Positions 18,740-36,181 of a stretch of 58,947 nucleotides of DNA are shown piece by piece. Position numbers and translations under genes: made by a program. Location: assembly GCA_038061925.1 (NCBI GenBank), contig JBBTYD010000007.1, positions 1 through 58,947 of the forward strand, written 5' to 3'. The notes below the pieces were generated by a model, which saw only the letters and a program-made list of their open reading frames with translations, had not been told where the DNA came from and searched no databases. Origin of the DNA: Patescibacteria group bacterium. GTDB taxonomy: Bacteria; Patescibacteriota; Minisyncoccia; Phycocordibacterales; UBA9973. Each line of letters begins with the position of its first letter. The stretch's first letter is position 1.

Positions 18740-18761
18740 TCATCTAGGCCTTGCCTAGCTG
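18740..18761. repeat. Left REP-like repeat of the RAYT unit
   Basis: TCATCTAGGCCTTGCCTAGCTG; exact reverse complement of 19442-19463. Confidence 0.93.
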
Positions 18762-19417
18762 AGAGTGTTATAACTAAGCCATTCAAAAATTTCAGCTAAA
18801 AAAGATTTTTTATTCGGAAAATATTTTGGAAATGTTTTTATATTTAATATTTTATTTTGGGTTCTTTGTATCCCTATATAATCTAAATAACTCGAATAGG
18901 GATAATCATTTAAATATTCTACAACTTCTTTTTTATTTTTAATCCCACTTTCTTTCCAATCCTTCTGTATAAGTTTTACTGGATTTAAATGAATATAAGA
19001 AAACATATATTTAAGATATTGATCTATGTTTATATGTTGTGATTTAAATTTTCCTTCAAACAATGATCCAGTTCTTTTATACTTTTTATTAAAATACATT
19101 GAATAAGAAGTACTAAATTTCTGTATAAAATTACTTATATTATTATCTTCAGATTGAGTGATTAATAAATGAAAATGATTAGGCATTAAACAATACGCTC
19201 CAATATTAACTAGGGGTTCTTCACGCTCAATATCATATAAAGTTTGACCTTTATTTAAATTATTAACTTTTAAGTTTCCCTTTTGATTACAGGCATACAA
19301 AAGACCAATAAAACGCAAATAATCTTCTTTATCAAGAAAAATTTTTTGTTTACTATTTCCACGATTATATATATGATAATATTCTCCAGAAACTAATTTT
19401 ACTTTTCGTATTGACAT
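18755..19417 (-). mobile_element. rayT: REP-associated tyrosine transposase (RAYT, HUH Y1 family)
   Basis: YYHIYNRG, AYCLMPNHFHLL (HUH), YIHLNPV (catalytic Tyr), YSSY; flanked by inverted REP-like repeats. Start at ATG 19417. Confidence 0.9.
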
Positions 19418-19441
19418 AGATATATAATACAAAATACTTTC

Positions 19442-25315: not shown

Positions 25316-27586
25316 CTATTTTGCAATTTGGGTAGCTTCTTCAAACTTCACCGAGAGAAGCTTAGAGGCGCCATTACTACCGATGGTGATGCCGTAAAGC
25401 ACGCTGGCGCGGGACATCGTTTCTCTATTATGAGTAACAACAATAAGTTGAGAACTTTTAGAAAGTTTCTCTAACATATCGCCATATTTGCGCGAATTGG
25501 CTTCATCTAGCGCGGCATCGGTTTCATCTAACACAAGAAAAGGCGGCGGATTCACTTGCGACATGGCAAAAAGAAGAGCGATGGAAGTGAGCGACCTCTC
25601 TCCACCCGAGAGCGCATGAAGTTCTTTGACTTTCTTATGAGGCAAGGAAACATTTATTTCTACACCTTGTTCGAGCACAGCAGTATTATTATCTTCTTGT
25701 AATCCTAACTCTAGTTCTTCATCTGATTCGATAGAATCAGGCTGATTATTTTTTTTCTTCTTCTCTGGAACAATGATAGCTAAAGATCCCGTTCCCCCAT
25801 CAAACATAAGCGAGAAAAATTTCTGAAATTCTATATTAATTTTTTTAACACCTTCTTTGAATTCTAGATCAATTTTTTCTTTCAGGTCAGTTACTAGTTT
25901 TTGTAATGATTCAATGCTTTTAGCCAAATCTTCCATTTCTTTCTCCAAAAAACTATCTCGCTCCGTCACTTCTTTAAATTCTTTCATAATTTCAGCCCCG
26001 TTACCAATACCAACATCTTCTAATTTTATTTTTAGACGTTCAATTTTTCTCTTTAACTCTTCTTGAGTTGCGGAAGCCTTGCTTCCGCCCTAAGGCGTAA
26101 GCAAGGCTTCCGCAATATTTTTATAAGACAAAATTTCTTGACCAATCAAGGCGACGCCTTCCTTTATTTCATTTTCAAAAACTTTAGCTCTCTCTTTTAG
26201 ATTTCCTTCTTTAAGAATCACAAATTCCAAAGCGGAAGCCAATTCTTGATGTCTAACCTTAAATTTAAATTTTTCTTTTTCAAGATCACGTAAAGTTTCC
26301 ATCTCTTGATTTATCTCCTTTTTTAAAATATCCACTGATTTAGAAATTTCTTTCTCTTTCTCCTCTATTTCTCGCATTCTATTGCTAATTTCTTGGTAAT
26401 TTTTATTTAAGTTTTGTATTTCAAAATTCTTGTTAAAATTTTCTTTATTGGGAGTAGAAAATTTTTTCAAGATACTTTTAATTCGTTCTAAAATAGACTT
26501 CACATCTTCTATATTAGCTTTGGAAATAGCTTCATCTATCGAATAGTTTATTTCGTTTATCGTGGTTTTGATTTCCTCTTGGGAAATTTCTATCACTTTC
26601 GCTTTTTGCTCGGCCCGGCGTTCTTCCATCTCAATCATTCCCTCGATTCTGCCCAGCTTGCGTTCTATTTCGCTTTTTACTCCGCGCAGAGAATTCAAAT
26701 TATCTTCCAGAACTTTTAATTCATCTATCTTCTTATTACCTTTTCCAAAATTGCCATCTTCCGCGACAGAGATTCGACTCACGACACTTTGAAGTTCACT
26801 TCTCAGTTTGTTTCTTTCGGTCGATAAAACATTTTTTTCATTCTCTAAGTAAACATCTTCCCCTTTAAAATATTCTTTATATAAAATTGCCAATTCCGCT
26901 TGCATTTCTTTAGTTTTCTCAAACTTTTCCACTTGTTTCTTTAGAAAATTAAGATGCGGAATATTTTCTCTTCGCAAGAGAGTTACTTCTTTCATATTCT
27001 CCTCTGCCCGTTCTAGTTTCCTAGCACTTTCTTTTATTTTATATTGATAAATTTTAAGTCCGAGCGCGTCTTCTACCATTTCGCGTCTATCTTCCATATT
27101 GGCATTCAAAATTCTATCAGCTTCCCCCTGTGAAATAATATGATGCTGAGAAGAACCAATGTTGACTGAAGACAAAAGGTGGTGAATATCTTTTAACCTA
27201 ACTTCCGTGCCATTCAAAATATATTTGCTTAATCCATCAGAATAAACCTCACGAGAAATACTGACAGTTTCATAATTTAAATTTATATTGTCTCCGAGAT
27301 CATTATTAAGTTTAAAAATTTTATCAGAATTATTAAAATAGATTGAAACCGATGCGCGTGAACCTTTGGGTAAATTTTTTGATCCTTTAAAAATAAGATC
27401 AGCGCCTGACTTTCCACGCATTGATTTGATTGATTGTTCGCCTAAAACATAGCGAATGGCTTCCACCACGTTAGATTTTCCAGAACCATTTGGCCCAACA
27501 ATAGAGACAATTGAATTATCAAATTCTAAAACAGTTTTTTGCGCAAAAGATTTAAAACCATTTAATTCGAGGGTTTGAAGTCGCAT
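25316..27586 (-). pseudogene. smc: SMC-family ATPase (about 756 codons) interrupted by an in-frame TAG at 26090-26092
   Basis: Walker A GPNGSGKSN in the 5' ORF; LSGGERS and LDETDAALD in the 3' ORF. The 34 codons between the TAG and ATG 25987 are open and in frame (GGSKASATQEELKRKIERLKIKLEDVGIGNGAEI). Confidence 0.85.
26068..26115. repeat. 48-bp palindrome inside smc with the stop codon in its loop
   Basis: Minus strand: TTGCGGAAGCCTTGCTT-ACGCC-TTAG-GGCGG-AAGCAAGGCTTCCGCAA (17-bp perfect arms). Confidence 0.93.
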
Positions 27587-27605: not shown

Positions 27606-28301
27606 TTAATCCAGCCAATTCTTTACTTTTAATGCCGCTTCGGCTGCTTTTTGTTCTGCCTCCTGTTTTGACTTACCCTTGCCCTCAGCTATCAAATTAG
27701 GTCCAAAGAAAATCCCAACCATAAAATGTTTATCATGATCGGGACCTGACTCGGAGAGAACTTTATACGCGGGAGTAAAATTCACAAATTCTTGCGCTTT
27801 TTCTTGCACTAGAGATTTTGCATCACGCCAAAGCTTTTTTGATACTATTTCTTCTGTTTGGGGTAAAAGAGATTGATGCACAAATTTGTCCACCGCCTTA
27901 ATGCCTTGATCTAGATACATAGCCCCAATATATGCCTCATAGGTGTTCGCTAAAATATACTGTCTGGCTTTACCATTATCTTTGGCCTCACCTTTAGATA
28001 AAAGCAAGTAATCGTTCATGCCTATTTTCAAGGCAACTTCAGAAATAATCACAGCGTTCACCAGAGCTGAACGCAAGGAAGTCAATTCACCTTCTGTGTA
28101 ATTAGGATATTTTTTATAAAGAAAATCTGTAACGATAAGTTCAAGCACCGCATCACCCAAAAACTCAAGTCGTTCATTGTGCGAAAAATTAGTCGATGGA
28201 TTTTCGTTTATATAAGAACGATGTATAAAAGCTTGCTGGAGTAATTTTTTATCCTTAAATATTACTTTAGTTTTTTTCTCAAAATTGGAAAATTGAATCA
28301 T
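27606..28301 (-). CDS. rnc: Ribonuclease III
   Basis: HNERLEFLGDAVL signature and C-terminal dsRBD. Confidence 0.97.
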   Translation of the reverse strand: MIQFSNFEKKTKVIFKDKKLLQQAFIHRSYINENPSTNFSHNERLEFLGDAVLELIVTDFLYKKYPNYTEGELTSLRSALVNAVIISEVALKIGMNDYLLLSKGEAKDNGKARQYILANTYEAYIGAMYLDQGIKAVDKFVHQSLLPQTEEIVSKKLWRDAKSLVQEKAQEFVNFTPAYKVLSESGPDHDKHFMVGIFFGPNLIAEGKGKSKQEAEQKAAEAALKVKNWLD

Positions 28302-28328: not shown

Positions 28329-29291
28329 CTAATTTATTTTTTGCTTTTCATTACTTAATATATGGACTGCCTTCGTGATTAGTGGAATAATGTCGTTATA
28401 AATACGAAGCTCCGGCACCTCCGTCACCTCGAACCATCTGGCACCATCGAGTCCGCCTGAGTCTTCAAGTTTAAGCTCTTTATATTCACTATACGCCAGA
28501 AAGTATACAACTTTTTTTAGACTTTTTCCTTTGGAAGGATGCGTAGCGATATATTCATTTATCCCAAGTTTTTCTTCCACTTTTATATCAAGCCCGATTT
28601 CTTTTTTAATTACTTTAGATATACCTTCTTTTACATCCTCCAATGCTTCAATTTTACCTTTTGATAAAGTCCAGTAACCAAAAACGTCATGCACCAGCGC
28701 AAATAAAATATTGCCACTTTTTTTCGCATATACTAACGCCCCTCCTAAATTCTCAACTGGCAATTTATTAATATCTGTTAATTCTTTTTCTTCTCGAGAG
28801 TCAATATAATTTTTCTTTTTATCATATTTTTTTTGATGTTCTTTATCCGGCTCGCCTATTTCTTTATAAACCGCCCCAAGTACGCCATTTATAAATTTAC
28901 CAGAATTCTCCCCACCAAAAGTTTTTGCTAATTCGATAGCTTCATTAATTGCCACTTTCGGAGGCACTTGCAATCTGTCGCCAAACAACAGTTCAGTCAA
29001 TCCGATTCGGAGAATATTCCTATCGACAATAGAGATTTTATCTAACGGCCAATCTGGTGCGGCCTTTTTTATGATTTCATCAACCATCACTTGCTTCTTT
29101 AAGATTTGGTCTAAAAGAGAAAACACAAAAGGATCCTCCTCCAGACCGGGGGCAAATTCTTTTAAATTTCTATTTAATGCAACTTTAATCTCGTTACTAG
29201 TGGAGTGGTCGCTCTTTTTTTCTAAAGGTAAAAAATCCCACTCAAAAAGCGTCTGAAGTACTATTGATCTTGAAAGGTGCCTATTTGCCAT
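28329..29291 (-). CDS. nusB: NusB fused to a C-terminal Nudix-fold domain
   Basis: RHLSR, DRNILR, AINEAIELAK.FG, FINGVLG; C-terminal Nudix fold with a degenerate Nudix box. Confidence 0.9.
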   Translation of the reverse strand: MANRHLSRSIVLQTLFEWDFLPLEKKSDHSTSNEIKVALNRNLKEFAPGLEEDPFVFSLLDQILKKQVMVDEIIKKAAPDWPLDKISIVDRNILRIGLTELLFGDRLQVPPKVAINEAIELAKTFGGENSGKFINGVLGAVYKEIGEPDKEHQKKYDKKKNYIDSREEKELTDINKLPVENLGGALVYAKKSGNILFALVHDVFGYWTLSKGKIEALEDVKEGISKVIKKEIGLDIKVEEKLGINEYIATHPSKGKSLKKVVYFLAYSEYKELKLEDSGGLDGARWFEVTEVPELRIYNDIIPLITKAVHILSNEKQKIN

Positions 29292-33551: not shown

Positions 33552-35447
33552 CTATCTTACCTGCCAATCATTATTTTCTTTAATTTTATTAGTTATTTTA
33601 ATCATATTTTCATTTACTTCAATATCTGTCAGAGTCCGGTCGTAAGACTGAAAAACTAATCTAAAGGCATACGAGATTTGGTTACCTTTCTTGAATTCAT
33701 CAAAAAGTTCTGGACCTCGGATTACCATATCTCCCATATTTTTTTTTATTATATTTTTGACTTCTGAGCTTTTTACATTTTCCGGCACCCAGACAGCTAT
33801 ATCACGCGCGATGAAAGGAAATAAAGACCACATCTGAAATAAAAGAGGCTTTAGTGAAGAATTCTTATTTTTTTTTTGTAAAAGAAAATCTTCTTTAAAA
33901 GAGACTTGGAAGCGCGACGGCGCGAGCACGAGGAATTTTTCAGCAGAAAAATATCCGTGCTCTTTGGAAGAAGAATTCTCTAGAACAAATTCTTCAAGCG
34001 TCGTTTCTTTTATCTCTTTTTTATCTCCATACGCAATATGCATCTCTTCCCCCGTCTTTTTAAATATCGTTCCAATTTCAAAAATCTTGACCTGATTAAT
34101 TCCCAAAAATAGAGCATTTAATTGATTAAGTTTGCTACTTTCTTTAAGACCATCAGTTAAATTTGTGCGTAAAAATTTCTTATCAGAAGCACTGTTTTGC
34201 ACTTCCACTTCCCCTTTATCGCAAAAAGTATAAGTCATCACTTCGAAGTATCCATCACTGAGTAATCTATTTTTCGCCCAACAAATTTTCGCATACGTTT
34301 CATTTTGTTTTGGTTTAAAACTTATTTTAGGAATATTTCCTTTTATCTTATCGTATCCAAGAATTCTCGCCATTTCTTCCGCCATATCTTCTTCAATTTC
34401 TAAATCAAGGCGCATCGGCGGCACGGTCATTAGAAACTTGGTAGTCGGAGTACCAAGTGGTACTCCGACTACCAAGTCGTATGTAAAATTATATCTTTTT
34501 AAAATATCCTTTATCGTAGTTACCGAAACATCAAGACCTAAAATGTCTGAGATTCTATTAGCCGAAAATGAAAGTTTTTTTTCTTTTTGTTTTTTGGGAT
34601 AAGTATCGACGATATCTTCAAAAATAGCTCCAGGACACATTTCAAAAATAAGCGCGGAAAGTTCCCTCATCGCATAAGAACCCAATTCTGGAGATAAATT
34701 ATTTTCAAAACGTTTTCGAGCGTCAGTAAAAATATTTAAAGCTTGAGCCGTTTTCCTGACACTCATAGGATCAAAATTAGCAACTTCAATAATTATATTT
34801 TTTGTATTTTCGTCAACCTCCGCAATCTTTCCGCCTTTTATTCCGGCCAGAGCTAAAACATTCTTCGAATCAGCAATAACAAGGTGGAAATTTTTTAATT
34901 TTATTTCTTTATTATCCAATGTGACTATCTCTTCACCAGCCTGCGCGTCACGCACCATTATTCCACCCTTTATTTTATCCAAATCAAAAGCATGTGTCGG
35001 CTGTCCGCAGTCAAACATCACAATATTTGCAGCATCCACAATATTATTTATGCTTCTCTGCCCTATCGATTCTAAATGTTTCACTACCCAGTCTGGACTA
35101 GAACCAACTTTCACACTTCTTATTATTCTACCCATATATCTTGGACATTTGTCGATCTTTATTTCTATCAGCAAATTAGTTGATTTAGACTCCGGAATTT
35201 TATATTTTGGTGTTGGATCAACATATTTTATATTCAAAAGTGAAGCTAGCTCACGAGCAACACCCTGATGAGAAAGTAAATCATGCGCGCGGTTCGGCAA
35301 TATTTTTAAATCAAAAATAACATCCCCATCCAGCTTTTTCTCCGCAGTCTCAACTTCACAAAGATGATAATTAAAAATATCTACCAGTTTATTTGCATCT
35401 GGCGCCTTCGGTATATACTGTTTAAGCCAATTGTAAGAAATTTTCAT
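33552..35447 (-). CDS. pheT: Phenylalanyl-tRNA synthetase beta subunit, shortened, with two palindromic insertions
   Basis: MKISYNWLKQY start, PNRAHDLLSH.GVARE, RDIAVW, FDX-ACB C-terminus. Confidence 0.93.
   Translation of the reverse strand: MKISYNWLKQYIPKAPDANKLVDIFNYHLCEVETAEKKLDGDVIFDLKILPNRAHDLLSHQGVARELASLLNIKYVDPTPKYKIPESKSTNLLIEIKIDKCPRYMGRIIRSVKVGSSPDWVVKHLESIGQRSINNIVDAANIVMFDCGQPTHAFDLDKIKGGIMVRDAQAGEEIVTLDNKEIKLKNFHLVIADSKNVLALAGIKGGKIAEVDENTKNIIIEVANFDPMSVRKTAQALNIFTDARKRFENNLSPELGSYAMRELSALIFEMCPGAIFEDIVDTYPKKQKEKKLSFSANRISDILGLDVSVTTIKDILKRYNFTYDLVVGVPLGTPTTKFLMTVPPMRLDLEIEEDMAEEMARILGYDKIKGNIPKISFKPKQNETYAKICWAKNRLLSDGYFEVMTYTFCDKGEVEVQNSASDKKFLRTNLTDGLKESSKLNQLNALFLGINQVKIFEIGTIFKKTGEEMHIAYGDKKEIKETTLEEFVLENSSSKEHGYFSAEKFLVLAPSRFQVSFKEDFLLQKKNKNSSLKPLLFQMWSLFPFIARDIAVWVPENVKSSEVKNIIKKNMGDMVIRGPELFDEFKKGNQISYAFRLVFQSYDRTLTDIEVNENMIKITNKIKENNDWQVR
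33856..33979. repeat. Probable 114-bp in-frame insertion in pheT bounded by 10-bp direct repeats
   Basis: GAAGAATTCT at 33856 and 33970 (114 nt apart); inner hairpin GAGCACG...CGTGCTC at 33924-33962. Confidence 0.6.
34436..34477. repeat. 42-bp palindrome in frame inside pheT
   Basis: ACTTGGTAGTCGGAGTACCA-AG-TGGTACTCCGACTACCAAGT; encodes DLVVGVPLGTPTTK. Confidence 0.93.
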
Positions 35448-35461
35448 ATCAAAATCGAAAA

Positions 35462-36181
35462 TTAAAATTGATTCAGCCTTAAATCTCCCTGATAAAAAAG
35501 ACGCACATCGGGAATACCCCATTTTATCATCGCAATCCGGTCAAGCCCTCCACCAAAAGCGAAACCTTGCACCTTGGCGGGATCCAGACCAATATTGCGC
35601 AAAACATTCGGGTGCAACATTCCCGCACCCATCATCTCGAGCCATTTACCTTTAAATTTAGCAAATACTTCAATGGAGGGTTCAGTAAAAGGGAAAAAAC
35701 TCGGCCTGAATTCTATCTCCACATTTTCCCCCAGCATTTTTTTATAAAAAAGAGTCAGCACGCCTTTCAAATCAGCCAGAGAAATATCCTCTCCCACCAT
35801 TACTCCATCTATCTGAAAAAACTGCATCTCGTGAGTTATATCTGTGGCTTCGTTTCTAAATACTTTTCCGATTGAAATAAAGGCGCAAGGCATCCTGCCC
35901 GCCTTACCCGCCTGTTCAATCGCGCGAGCGGTGACCGTCGTGGTATGAGTGCGAAGCACAGCTGAGCCTGGATGCTTCCCATTTTTTATCCAAAAAGTGT
36001 CTTGCATGTCCAGCGCCGGATGATCTTTGGAAAAGTTCAAGACATAAAAGTTATACCAGTCGTTTTCCAGTTCCGGCCCGATCGCAATTTCAAAACCCAT
36101 ATCGGAAAAAGCTTGGTACGCTTGATTTGTCAATCTAGAAAACGGATGCATTGTGCCTTTTTGCTTATTTTCATCGGTCAT
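35462..36181 (-). CDS. pheS: Phenylalanyl-tRNA synthetase alpha subunit, N-terminally truncated
   Basis: HPALDMQDTF, LRTHTT, FRNE, FPFTEPS, GFAFGGGLDR. Confidence 0.96.
   Translation of the reverse strand: MTDENKQKGTMHPFSRLTNQAYQAFSDMGFEIAIGPELENDWYNFYVLNFSKDHPALDMQDTFWIKNGKHPGSAVLRTHTTTVTARAIEQAGKAGRMPCAFISIGKVFRNEATDITHEMQFFQIDGVMVGEDISLADLKGVLTLFYKKMLGENVEIEFRPSFFPFTEPSIEVFAKFKGKWLEMMGAGMLHPNVLRNIGLDPAKVQGFAFGGGLDRIAMIKWGIPDVRLFYQGDLRLNQF

Follow-up and report, generated by a model that had tools for sequence, protein, structure and literature searches.

In the 58,947-nt contig JBBTYD010000007.1 of the Patescibacteria group bacterium assembly GCA_038061925.1, the whole of which was analyzed here and is hereafter called the window, the smc gene (27586..25316, minus strand) is split by an amber codon, which forms part of the apical loop of a 48-bp palindrome. 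The explanation that we favor as a whole, and hold with high confidence, is that this codon is a nonprogrammed single-base variant of an unpaired apex codon, private to the window assembly, and that the palindrome is a copy of a selfish, or at least dispersed, repeat of the same kind as the Rickettsia palindromic elements (RPEs). Because five assemblies from the same population carry an intact gene, it would be wrong to interpret the split in this metagenome-assembled genome (MAG) as a lost gene, a recoding event, or a novel two-chain SMC, and the intact gene is the normal state whether the TAG is real or an error. Judging from a structural model, the GC-rich palindrome appears to sit in a disordered break of the C-terminal coiled-coil arm of SMC, and, being a multiple of three in length and open in all frames, it would normally be translated to give one intact chain of 756 aa. 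A TAG allele, if present in cells, would be a minority smc-null allele.

The gene spans 757 codons. Its sole internal stop follows residue 498, and the frame stays open past it for 257 further codons before the terminal TAG is reached, as an earlier note, made from the letters of the sequence, had claimed in describing the apex TAG as the only interruption. The N-terminal 498 codons (26093..27586, minus strand) match SMC_N positions 2 to 136 and include the Walker A motif GPNGSGKS. They cover the head lobe with Walker A, the N-terminal arm of the coiled coil, a tip of helices that replaces the hinge, and most of the returning arm. The C-terminal 257 codons and the terminal TAG (25316..26089, minus strand) are in the same frame and encode the end of the coiled coil followed by the LSGGE signature and Walker B motif FLVLDE, and this part matches SMC_N positions 117 to 219. 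These matches and motifs confirm that the stop parts Walker A from the signature and Walker B, and, together with the long helices of the structural model, they give the architecture of an SMC protein, in which a Walker A lobe and a signature/Walker B lobe are joined by coiled coil. The rnc gene for RNase III (27606..28301, minus strand; Pfam Ribonuclease_3 and dsrm) is immediately upstream, and this rnc-smc order is the usual arrangement, which supports the identification of the gene as the chromosomal SMC.

The palindrome (26068..26115) consists of two 22-nt arms, at 26068-26089 and 26094-26115, that are 95% complementary with a single mismatch at 26098 and enclose a 4-nt loop. The amber codon (26092..26090, minus strand) occupies positions 2 to 4 of the mRNA loop UUAG, so that the earlier description of a TAG in the UUAG loop of a 48-bp palindrome holds. 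The hairpin is very stable both as RNA (-43.3 kcal/mol, z = -8.3, equaled by 0 of 200 shuffles) and as DNA (-26.7 kcal/mol, z = -10.5), and a search of the region against Rfam returned no family, only subthreshold matches to generic, miRNA-like hairpins. In frame, the palindrome reads IAEALLTP*GGSKASAT (the asterisk marking the stop) and has diverged from the family consensus described below; the predicted junction peptide across the translated element is NIAEALLPPSGGSK. In an AlphaFold2 model of the protein (mean pLDDT only 68), the insert is predicted to form a low-confidence loop at residues 494-504 (pLDDT < 50) between the helices of the returning arm, and most SMC homologs have an unrelated variable stretch, mostly of 10-13 residues, at this position.

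Intact counterparts come from five independent sibling assemblies of the same Hainich-aquifer Paceibacterota population, four of them from well H43 (L001, L002, L003, and L017) and the fifth a MAG from NCBI (L018). All five encode an intact 756-aa SMC with TCG (four assemblies) or GCT (one) in place of the amber codon, and a protein search with the read-through product found 756-aa siblings that are 100% identical outside the insert, with Ser or Ala at the stop position. At the nucleotide level, the five match the window over 13,857-22,271 bases save at positions 26082, 26090-26093, and 26098, plus an unrelated position, 33665; 6 of these 7 variable positions fall within 17 nt in the palindrome. 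The commonest form, found in L017 and L018, is a perfect 22-bp stem with a C(TTCG)G loop and Ser at the apex; L018 shows no other difference, and L017 differs only outside the palindrome, at 33665. L003 has the same TTCG loop and apex Ser with an A at 26082 that introduces a stem mismatch, L001 has the loop GTCG (Ser) together with a T at 26098, and L002 has the loop AGCT (Ala) on a perfect stem with nothing else differing from L017 and L018. The window, with the loop TTAG and a T at 26098 that gives its stem mismatch, differs from the commonest form at two plus-strand positions, with G changed to T at both 26091 (TCG to TAG) and 26098. One proposal of the earlier note was that a C(UUCG)G loop had changed from TCG to TAG, whether in reality or through a consensus error. 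The substitution, be it real or an error, is borne out by L003, L017, and L018, which read CC-TTCG-GG.

These comparisons bear directly on whether the lineage has lost smc, with the TAG as the first inactivating mutation of a fixed pseudogene. SMC is dispensable in some slow-growing bacteria, which speaks for such a loss, but at least 13.9 kb of the window are identical to the siblings that carry the intact gene except at 26091 and 26098, both in the palindrome, and the gene bears neither a further lesion nor any divergence or mark of relaxed selection. We therefore regard a fixed pseudogene as very unlikely.

The same absence of the stop from related genes weighs against programmed recoding, in which the hairpin would drive UAG readthrough or ribosomal bypass to yield full-length SMC from the TAG allele, as had been offered in the earlier note. 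An open frame flanks the stop on either side, the hairpin is very stable, and there is a precedent in gene 60 of phage T4, in which a UAG likewise lies within a stem-loop at the take-off site. The smc stop shares with such bypass and readthrough signals a UAG combined with a stable stem-loop inside a continuous frame. However, it is missing from the five siblings and from an orthologous smc with the same insert (L008), and the UAG is in the loop, so the 5' arm would be inside the ribosome and the stem melted at the time of decoding. On our reading of the sequence, no CCN codon follows in frame at which a ribosome leaving the take-off codon CCU could land, and, unlike in readthrough signals, there is no stimulatory structure 3' of the stop. 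TAG is, moreover, an ordinary stop that terminates 13 of the 41 long open reading frames (ORFs) in the window, smc included, and none of the 7 tRNAs in the window has a CUA anticodon, leaving no suppressor tRNA there. The lack of conservation, of a matched take-off and landing codon pair, and of a downstream structure places the smc stop outside the class of programmed readthrough and bypass, and we consider recoding to be extremely improbable. Two related ideas were rejected: reassignment of TAG to sense, which the stop usage and tRNA set rule out as far as the window extends, and bypass between the internal direct repeats GCGGAAGC, which are 25 nt apart, so that a hop would by our reading shift the frame.

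The remaining proposal of the earlier note was a two-chain SMC, in which the 498-aa N-terminal chain and a second chain restarted at the ATG at 25987 would form a working ATPase. This ATG does begin a 223-aa ORF that holds the signature and Walker B motifs, but a restart there would drop ~34 coiled-coil residues, and the gene is an intact single chain in all siblings and in ~8000 homologs. A split was seen in the window assembly only and in none of the best 120 homologs. The intact single-chain siblings and orthologs leave us with next to no belief in a two-chain protein.

The earlier remark that the full protein is far shorter than a canonical SMC and has no recognizable hinge proved sound, although this turns out to be a trait common to its homologs. 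A canonical SMC, as defined by TIGR02168, is ~1150-1200 aa with a central hinge dimerization domain. The 756-aa read-through product matches this model strongly (E = 2e-151) at 506 bits, under the cutoff of 567 bits, and neither half of the protein matches Pfam SMC_hinge at E <= 0.01. Among the ~8000 homologs found, the best 120 are mostly 710-760 aa long and, three siblings excepted, 65-77% identical to the read-through query, and they belong to Paceibacterota, Nomurabacteria, and relatives. In the AlphaFold2 model, the coiled coil is predicted to turn back at approximately residues 330-387 through a tip of two short helices, 336-355 and 359-374. The structure prediction, which the earlier note had proposed for hinge and dimerization, thus shows a helical tip where a hinge would be. 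A literature search on dimerization of short hinge-less SMC proteins found no paper. The short hinge-less SMC is a conserved lineage trait, not damage to the gene in the window.

Turning to the palindrome itself, the hairpin was rightly described in the earlier note as inserted, and it is a copy of a dispersed family that is translated in frame. Exact-pattern scans over GTDB genomes and metagenome contigs, with host genes named by Pfam, located 13 further loci that carry the palindrome in five host genes: smc, topA, gap, atpG, and rpe. The family consensus is TTGCGGAAGCCTTGCTTCCGCC-AGCT-GGCGGAAGCAAGGCTTCCGCAA, with AGTT and AACT as loop variants, and the sources of the loci, both MAGs and metagenomes, represent more than one site, the Hainich aquifer included. 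All 13 lie within long ORFs and use one common frame out of three open ones, reading AEALLPPxGGSKASA; a common frame at five independent sites has a chance probability of ~(1/3)^4 = 0.012. Among the located copies, that of the window alone contains a stop. The smc locus among them is L008, an ortholog (P0004, 77% identical) with a 48-mer insert. The TTCG loop for which the earlier note had proposed to compare other copies of the element is present in the sibling smc copies L003, L017, and L018. Membership in the family and constancy of frame are observed at the located copies, and it is the manner in which the element spread that we infer.

The element varies in length in a way that preserves the frame, as each of its variants (24, 45, 48, and 57 nt) is divisible by three in length. 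The 45-nt copies are in L004 and L011, and the 57-nt copy in L005 has a 9-nt tandem duplication. In the gap copies (L005, L009, and L010), CTTCCGCAA occurs twice at the right end of the element, adding three codons, and this duplication could reflect either replication slippage or a feature resembling a target duplication. The smc gene of P0006 (L019) has, in place of the 48-mer of L008, a 24-nt single-hairpin form, GGCGAAAGCCTTGCTTCTGC, that encodes the peptide GESLASA and may represent half of the element or else have arisen by deletion between the internal direct repeats. L015 has a compensatory GCAG/CTGC pair that keeps the palindrome. One comparison must be read with caution: orthologous copies are 92-100% identical versus 69-82% for their flanks, and the exact-match scan biases the former value upward.

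Within the window, there is one copy of the element, that in smc, and none elsewhere in the 59 kb; the consensus centre CCGCCAGCTGGCGG has no match in the window within 3 mismatches. The 19-nt unit was not found in a scan of viral contigs, and the fetched loci examined contained no extra copies beyond the known ones. A synthetic linker or adapter was rejected as the source of the element, which is found only in genes of the candidate phyla radiation (CPR), in frame, and across unrelated studies. In each of four sequencing runs, one Logan contig has three 21-nt arm-unit copies spaced ~400 and 320 nt apart, which suggests that single-hairpin units are clustered somewhere in those metagenomes. 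A separate observation concerns the topA locus L006 (CAYIHB010000025.1), which is labeled "uncultured Candidatus Saccharibacteria" and, in the surroundings of topA, matches a Hainich H43 contig (L014) with 100% identity. As the closest relatives of L006 here are Paceibacterota or Nomurabacteria, the Saccharibacteria label looks doubtful.

The system that the element most resembles is that of the RPEs, palindromic repeats that lie in frame in Rickettsia genes and are translated (Ogata et al. 2000, as summarized in a review of MITEs, PMC10969869). Both are hairpin-forming palindromes dispersed in a small genome, both occur in frame in unrelated housekeeping genes and are translated as an added peptide, and in both the host protein would stay functional with the copies in tolerant loops, as the modeled loop of SMC may suggest for the element studied here. 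The differences are that the smc element is 48 nt long compared with roughly 100-150 nt for RPEs; that it is a nested double hairpin, with each arm itself a small hairpin; that it is found in CPR/Patescibacteria rather than Rickettsia; that it has few copies (one in the 59-kb window); and that it uses one common frame in all five host genes. We therefore file the element as of the same kind as the RPEs and not of the same family, given the differences in size and host phylum.

A second comparison is with repetitive extragenic palindromes (REPs), their hairpin doublets (REPINs), and the associated RAYT transposases. The smc element looks like two inverted copies of an imperfect palindrome of 21-22 nt in one long hairpin, as in a REPIN, and a single-copy gene for a RAYT-like transposase of the Y1/HUH type lies ~6 kb away (18755..19432, minus strand), between trmD and rpoB. 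This gene matches PF01797 and scores 53 bits against NF047646, for which the cutoff is 80 bits, and it is kept in every sibling assembly that reaches it. It is conceivable that it mobilizes hairpin repeats. Unlike REPs and REPINs, however, all located copies of the smc element are intragenic rather than extragenic, and the copy number is far lower. Around 18755-19432, there were no copies of the element beside the gene, only weak AT-rich inverted repeats, and a REP-RAYT pairing was rejected on the lack of a flanking copy and the score under the family cutoff.

With the intact gene established as the normal state, the question becomes what the variation at the palindrome center represents. We lean, at slightly better than an even chance, toward real heterogeneity at the smc copy, at the level of reads or of the population. 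The centre variation would, in this case, stem from damage to the single-stranded loop, from template switching, or from conversion by sister copies with the AGCT loop. The competing account is that all cells carry TCG and that the TAG and the other centre variants were produced by Illumina errors or damage at the hairpin under low coverage, together with confusion in the assembly graph among copies, and we regard this artifact as a serious contender that falls somewhat short of an even chance. The observations that bear on the choice pull in both directions. In four runs, Logan contigs end at 26073-26078 on the left and resume at 26092-26103 on the right, so that the palindrome centre is uncovered. 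In the same runs, locus-specific Logan contigs cross the topA copy, whose arms are identical, together with its loop, with 0 differences. The depths in these four runs were 5.4, 9.6, 14.8, and 7.6 at the topA locus versus 5.7, 10.6, 16.9, and 8.2 at smc, and this match implies that the two loci are probably in the same genome.

An internal control is provided by an unrelated 42-bp perfect palindrome with 20-bp arms at 34436..34477, inside a minus-strand ORF (33552-35522). Its hairpin has a stability of -21.9 kcal/mol, the four siblings that cover it show 0 differences, and Logan contigs run past its centre cleanly, also with 0 differences. Since both the topA copy and this control are read cleanly, a strong hairpin alone is insufficient to scramble the data. 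The artifact account also has to contend with the near-equal stability of the topA copy (-31.1 versus -32.0 kcal/mol) and its single protein sequence, as TopA is identical on five contigs with no near-identical variant; with the clean crossing of the topA loop, at an equal depth of 5-15x, by Logan words specific to that locus; with the invariance of the control palindrome; and with the fact that the single-base variants are not shifted toward the consensus loop.

Several points nevertheless weigh against real heterogeneity. The allele evidence consists of assembly consensus sequences and Logan contigs, and at this level an error and a real allele are inseparable. Each of the 8 changes that separate assemblies from the majority form is a transversion (G:C to T:A, A:T to C:G, and one A to T), a spectrum that looks more like damage or a base-calling artifact than natural variation, and coverage, as given by the contig names, is just 6-14x in three siblings. 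The controls, topA and the 42-bp palindrome alike, are themselves imperfect, as their central words are common to other copies and have a higher depth for that reason. Assemblers also mis-join at the element, and L021 is chimeric just past the gap copy. In favor of an artifact, in addition, the centre of L002 is the family consensus of the topA copy in the same assembly, as mixing in the graph predicts, and two assemblies disagree at a single base in an arm of the gap copy (Leu to Phe).

Separately, L021 (10001-10680) was seen to be identical to the gap locus L016 up to the element and then to have 18 mismatches in ~90 nt and an unrelated end; it appears to be a chimera of assembly, or perhaps the product of recombination, with its junction at the common repeat. 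The control palindrome was found at a depth of 56-266x in groundwater runs, versus 7-18x for its flank, with many other flanks adjoining it, and from this depth excess and the many flanks we take it to belong to a second dispersed repeat family.

A stronger form of the heterogeneity reading is that the centre of the smc palindrome is a genuine mutational hot spot in vivo, with a rate orders of magnitude above that of the rest of a near-clonal genome, the hairpin being extruded and its imperfect centre exposed or repeatedly recopied. We put this forward as a tentative and rather unlikely possibility. In the model of Ripley and Lovett, quasi-palindromes mutate by template switching, with fast-changing palindrome centers. 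The smc element resembles them in that its arms stay symmetric, as the compensatory pair in L015 illustrates, while the unpaired centre varies, and in that the G/T difference at 26098 switches between a perfect and an imperfect stem. It differs in that the loop variants are not the reverse complements expected from simple strand switching. A diversity-generating retroelement was rejected as a source of the variation, as the changes at the palindrome are not adenine specific. Real heterogeneity would provide a rare example in nature of a local mutation hot spot formed by the centre of a palindrome. Were the hot spot true, one groundwater population would hold several missense alleles together with a real amber (smc-null) allele, and the palindrome would drive a contingency-like locus in a minimal CPR genome.

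Whatever the status of the TAG allele, the element is a compact, 48-nt addition to the palindromic repeats that are translated in frame, of which Rickettsia supplies the textbook case, and our literature search found no paper on such repeats in CPR/Patescibacteria. The proteins it alters are essential ones, namely SMC, topoisomerase I, GAPDH, the ATP synthase gamma subunit, and Rpe. Such elements also break or scramble metagenome assemblies, as is evident from mis-joins and from consensus bases that differ among assemblies. Upstream of rnc, finally, a 320-aa ORF (28329-29291) carries a NusB domain and, as a weak match, a NUDIX domain, which is an unusual fusion.

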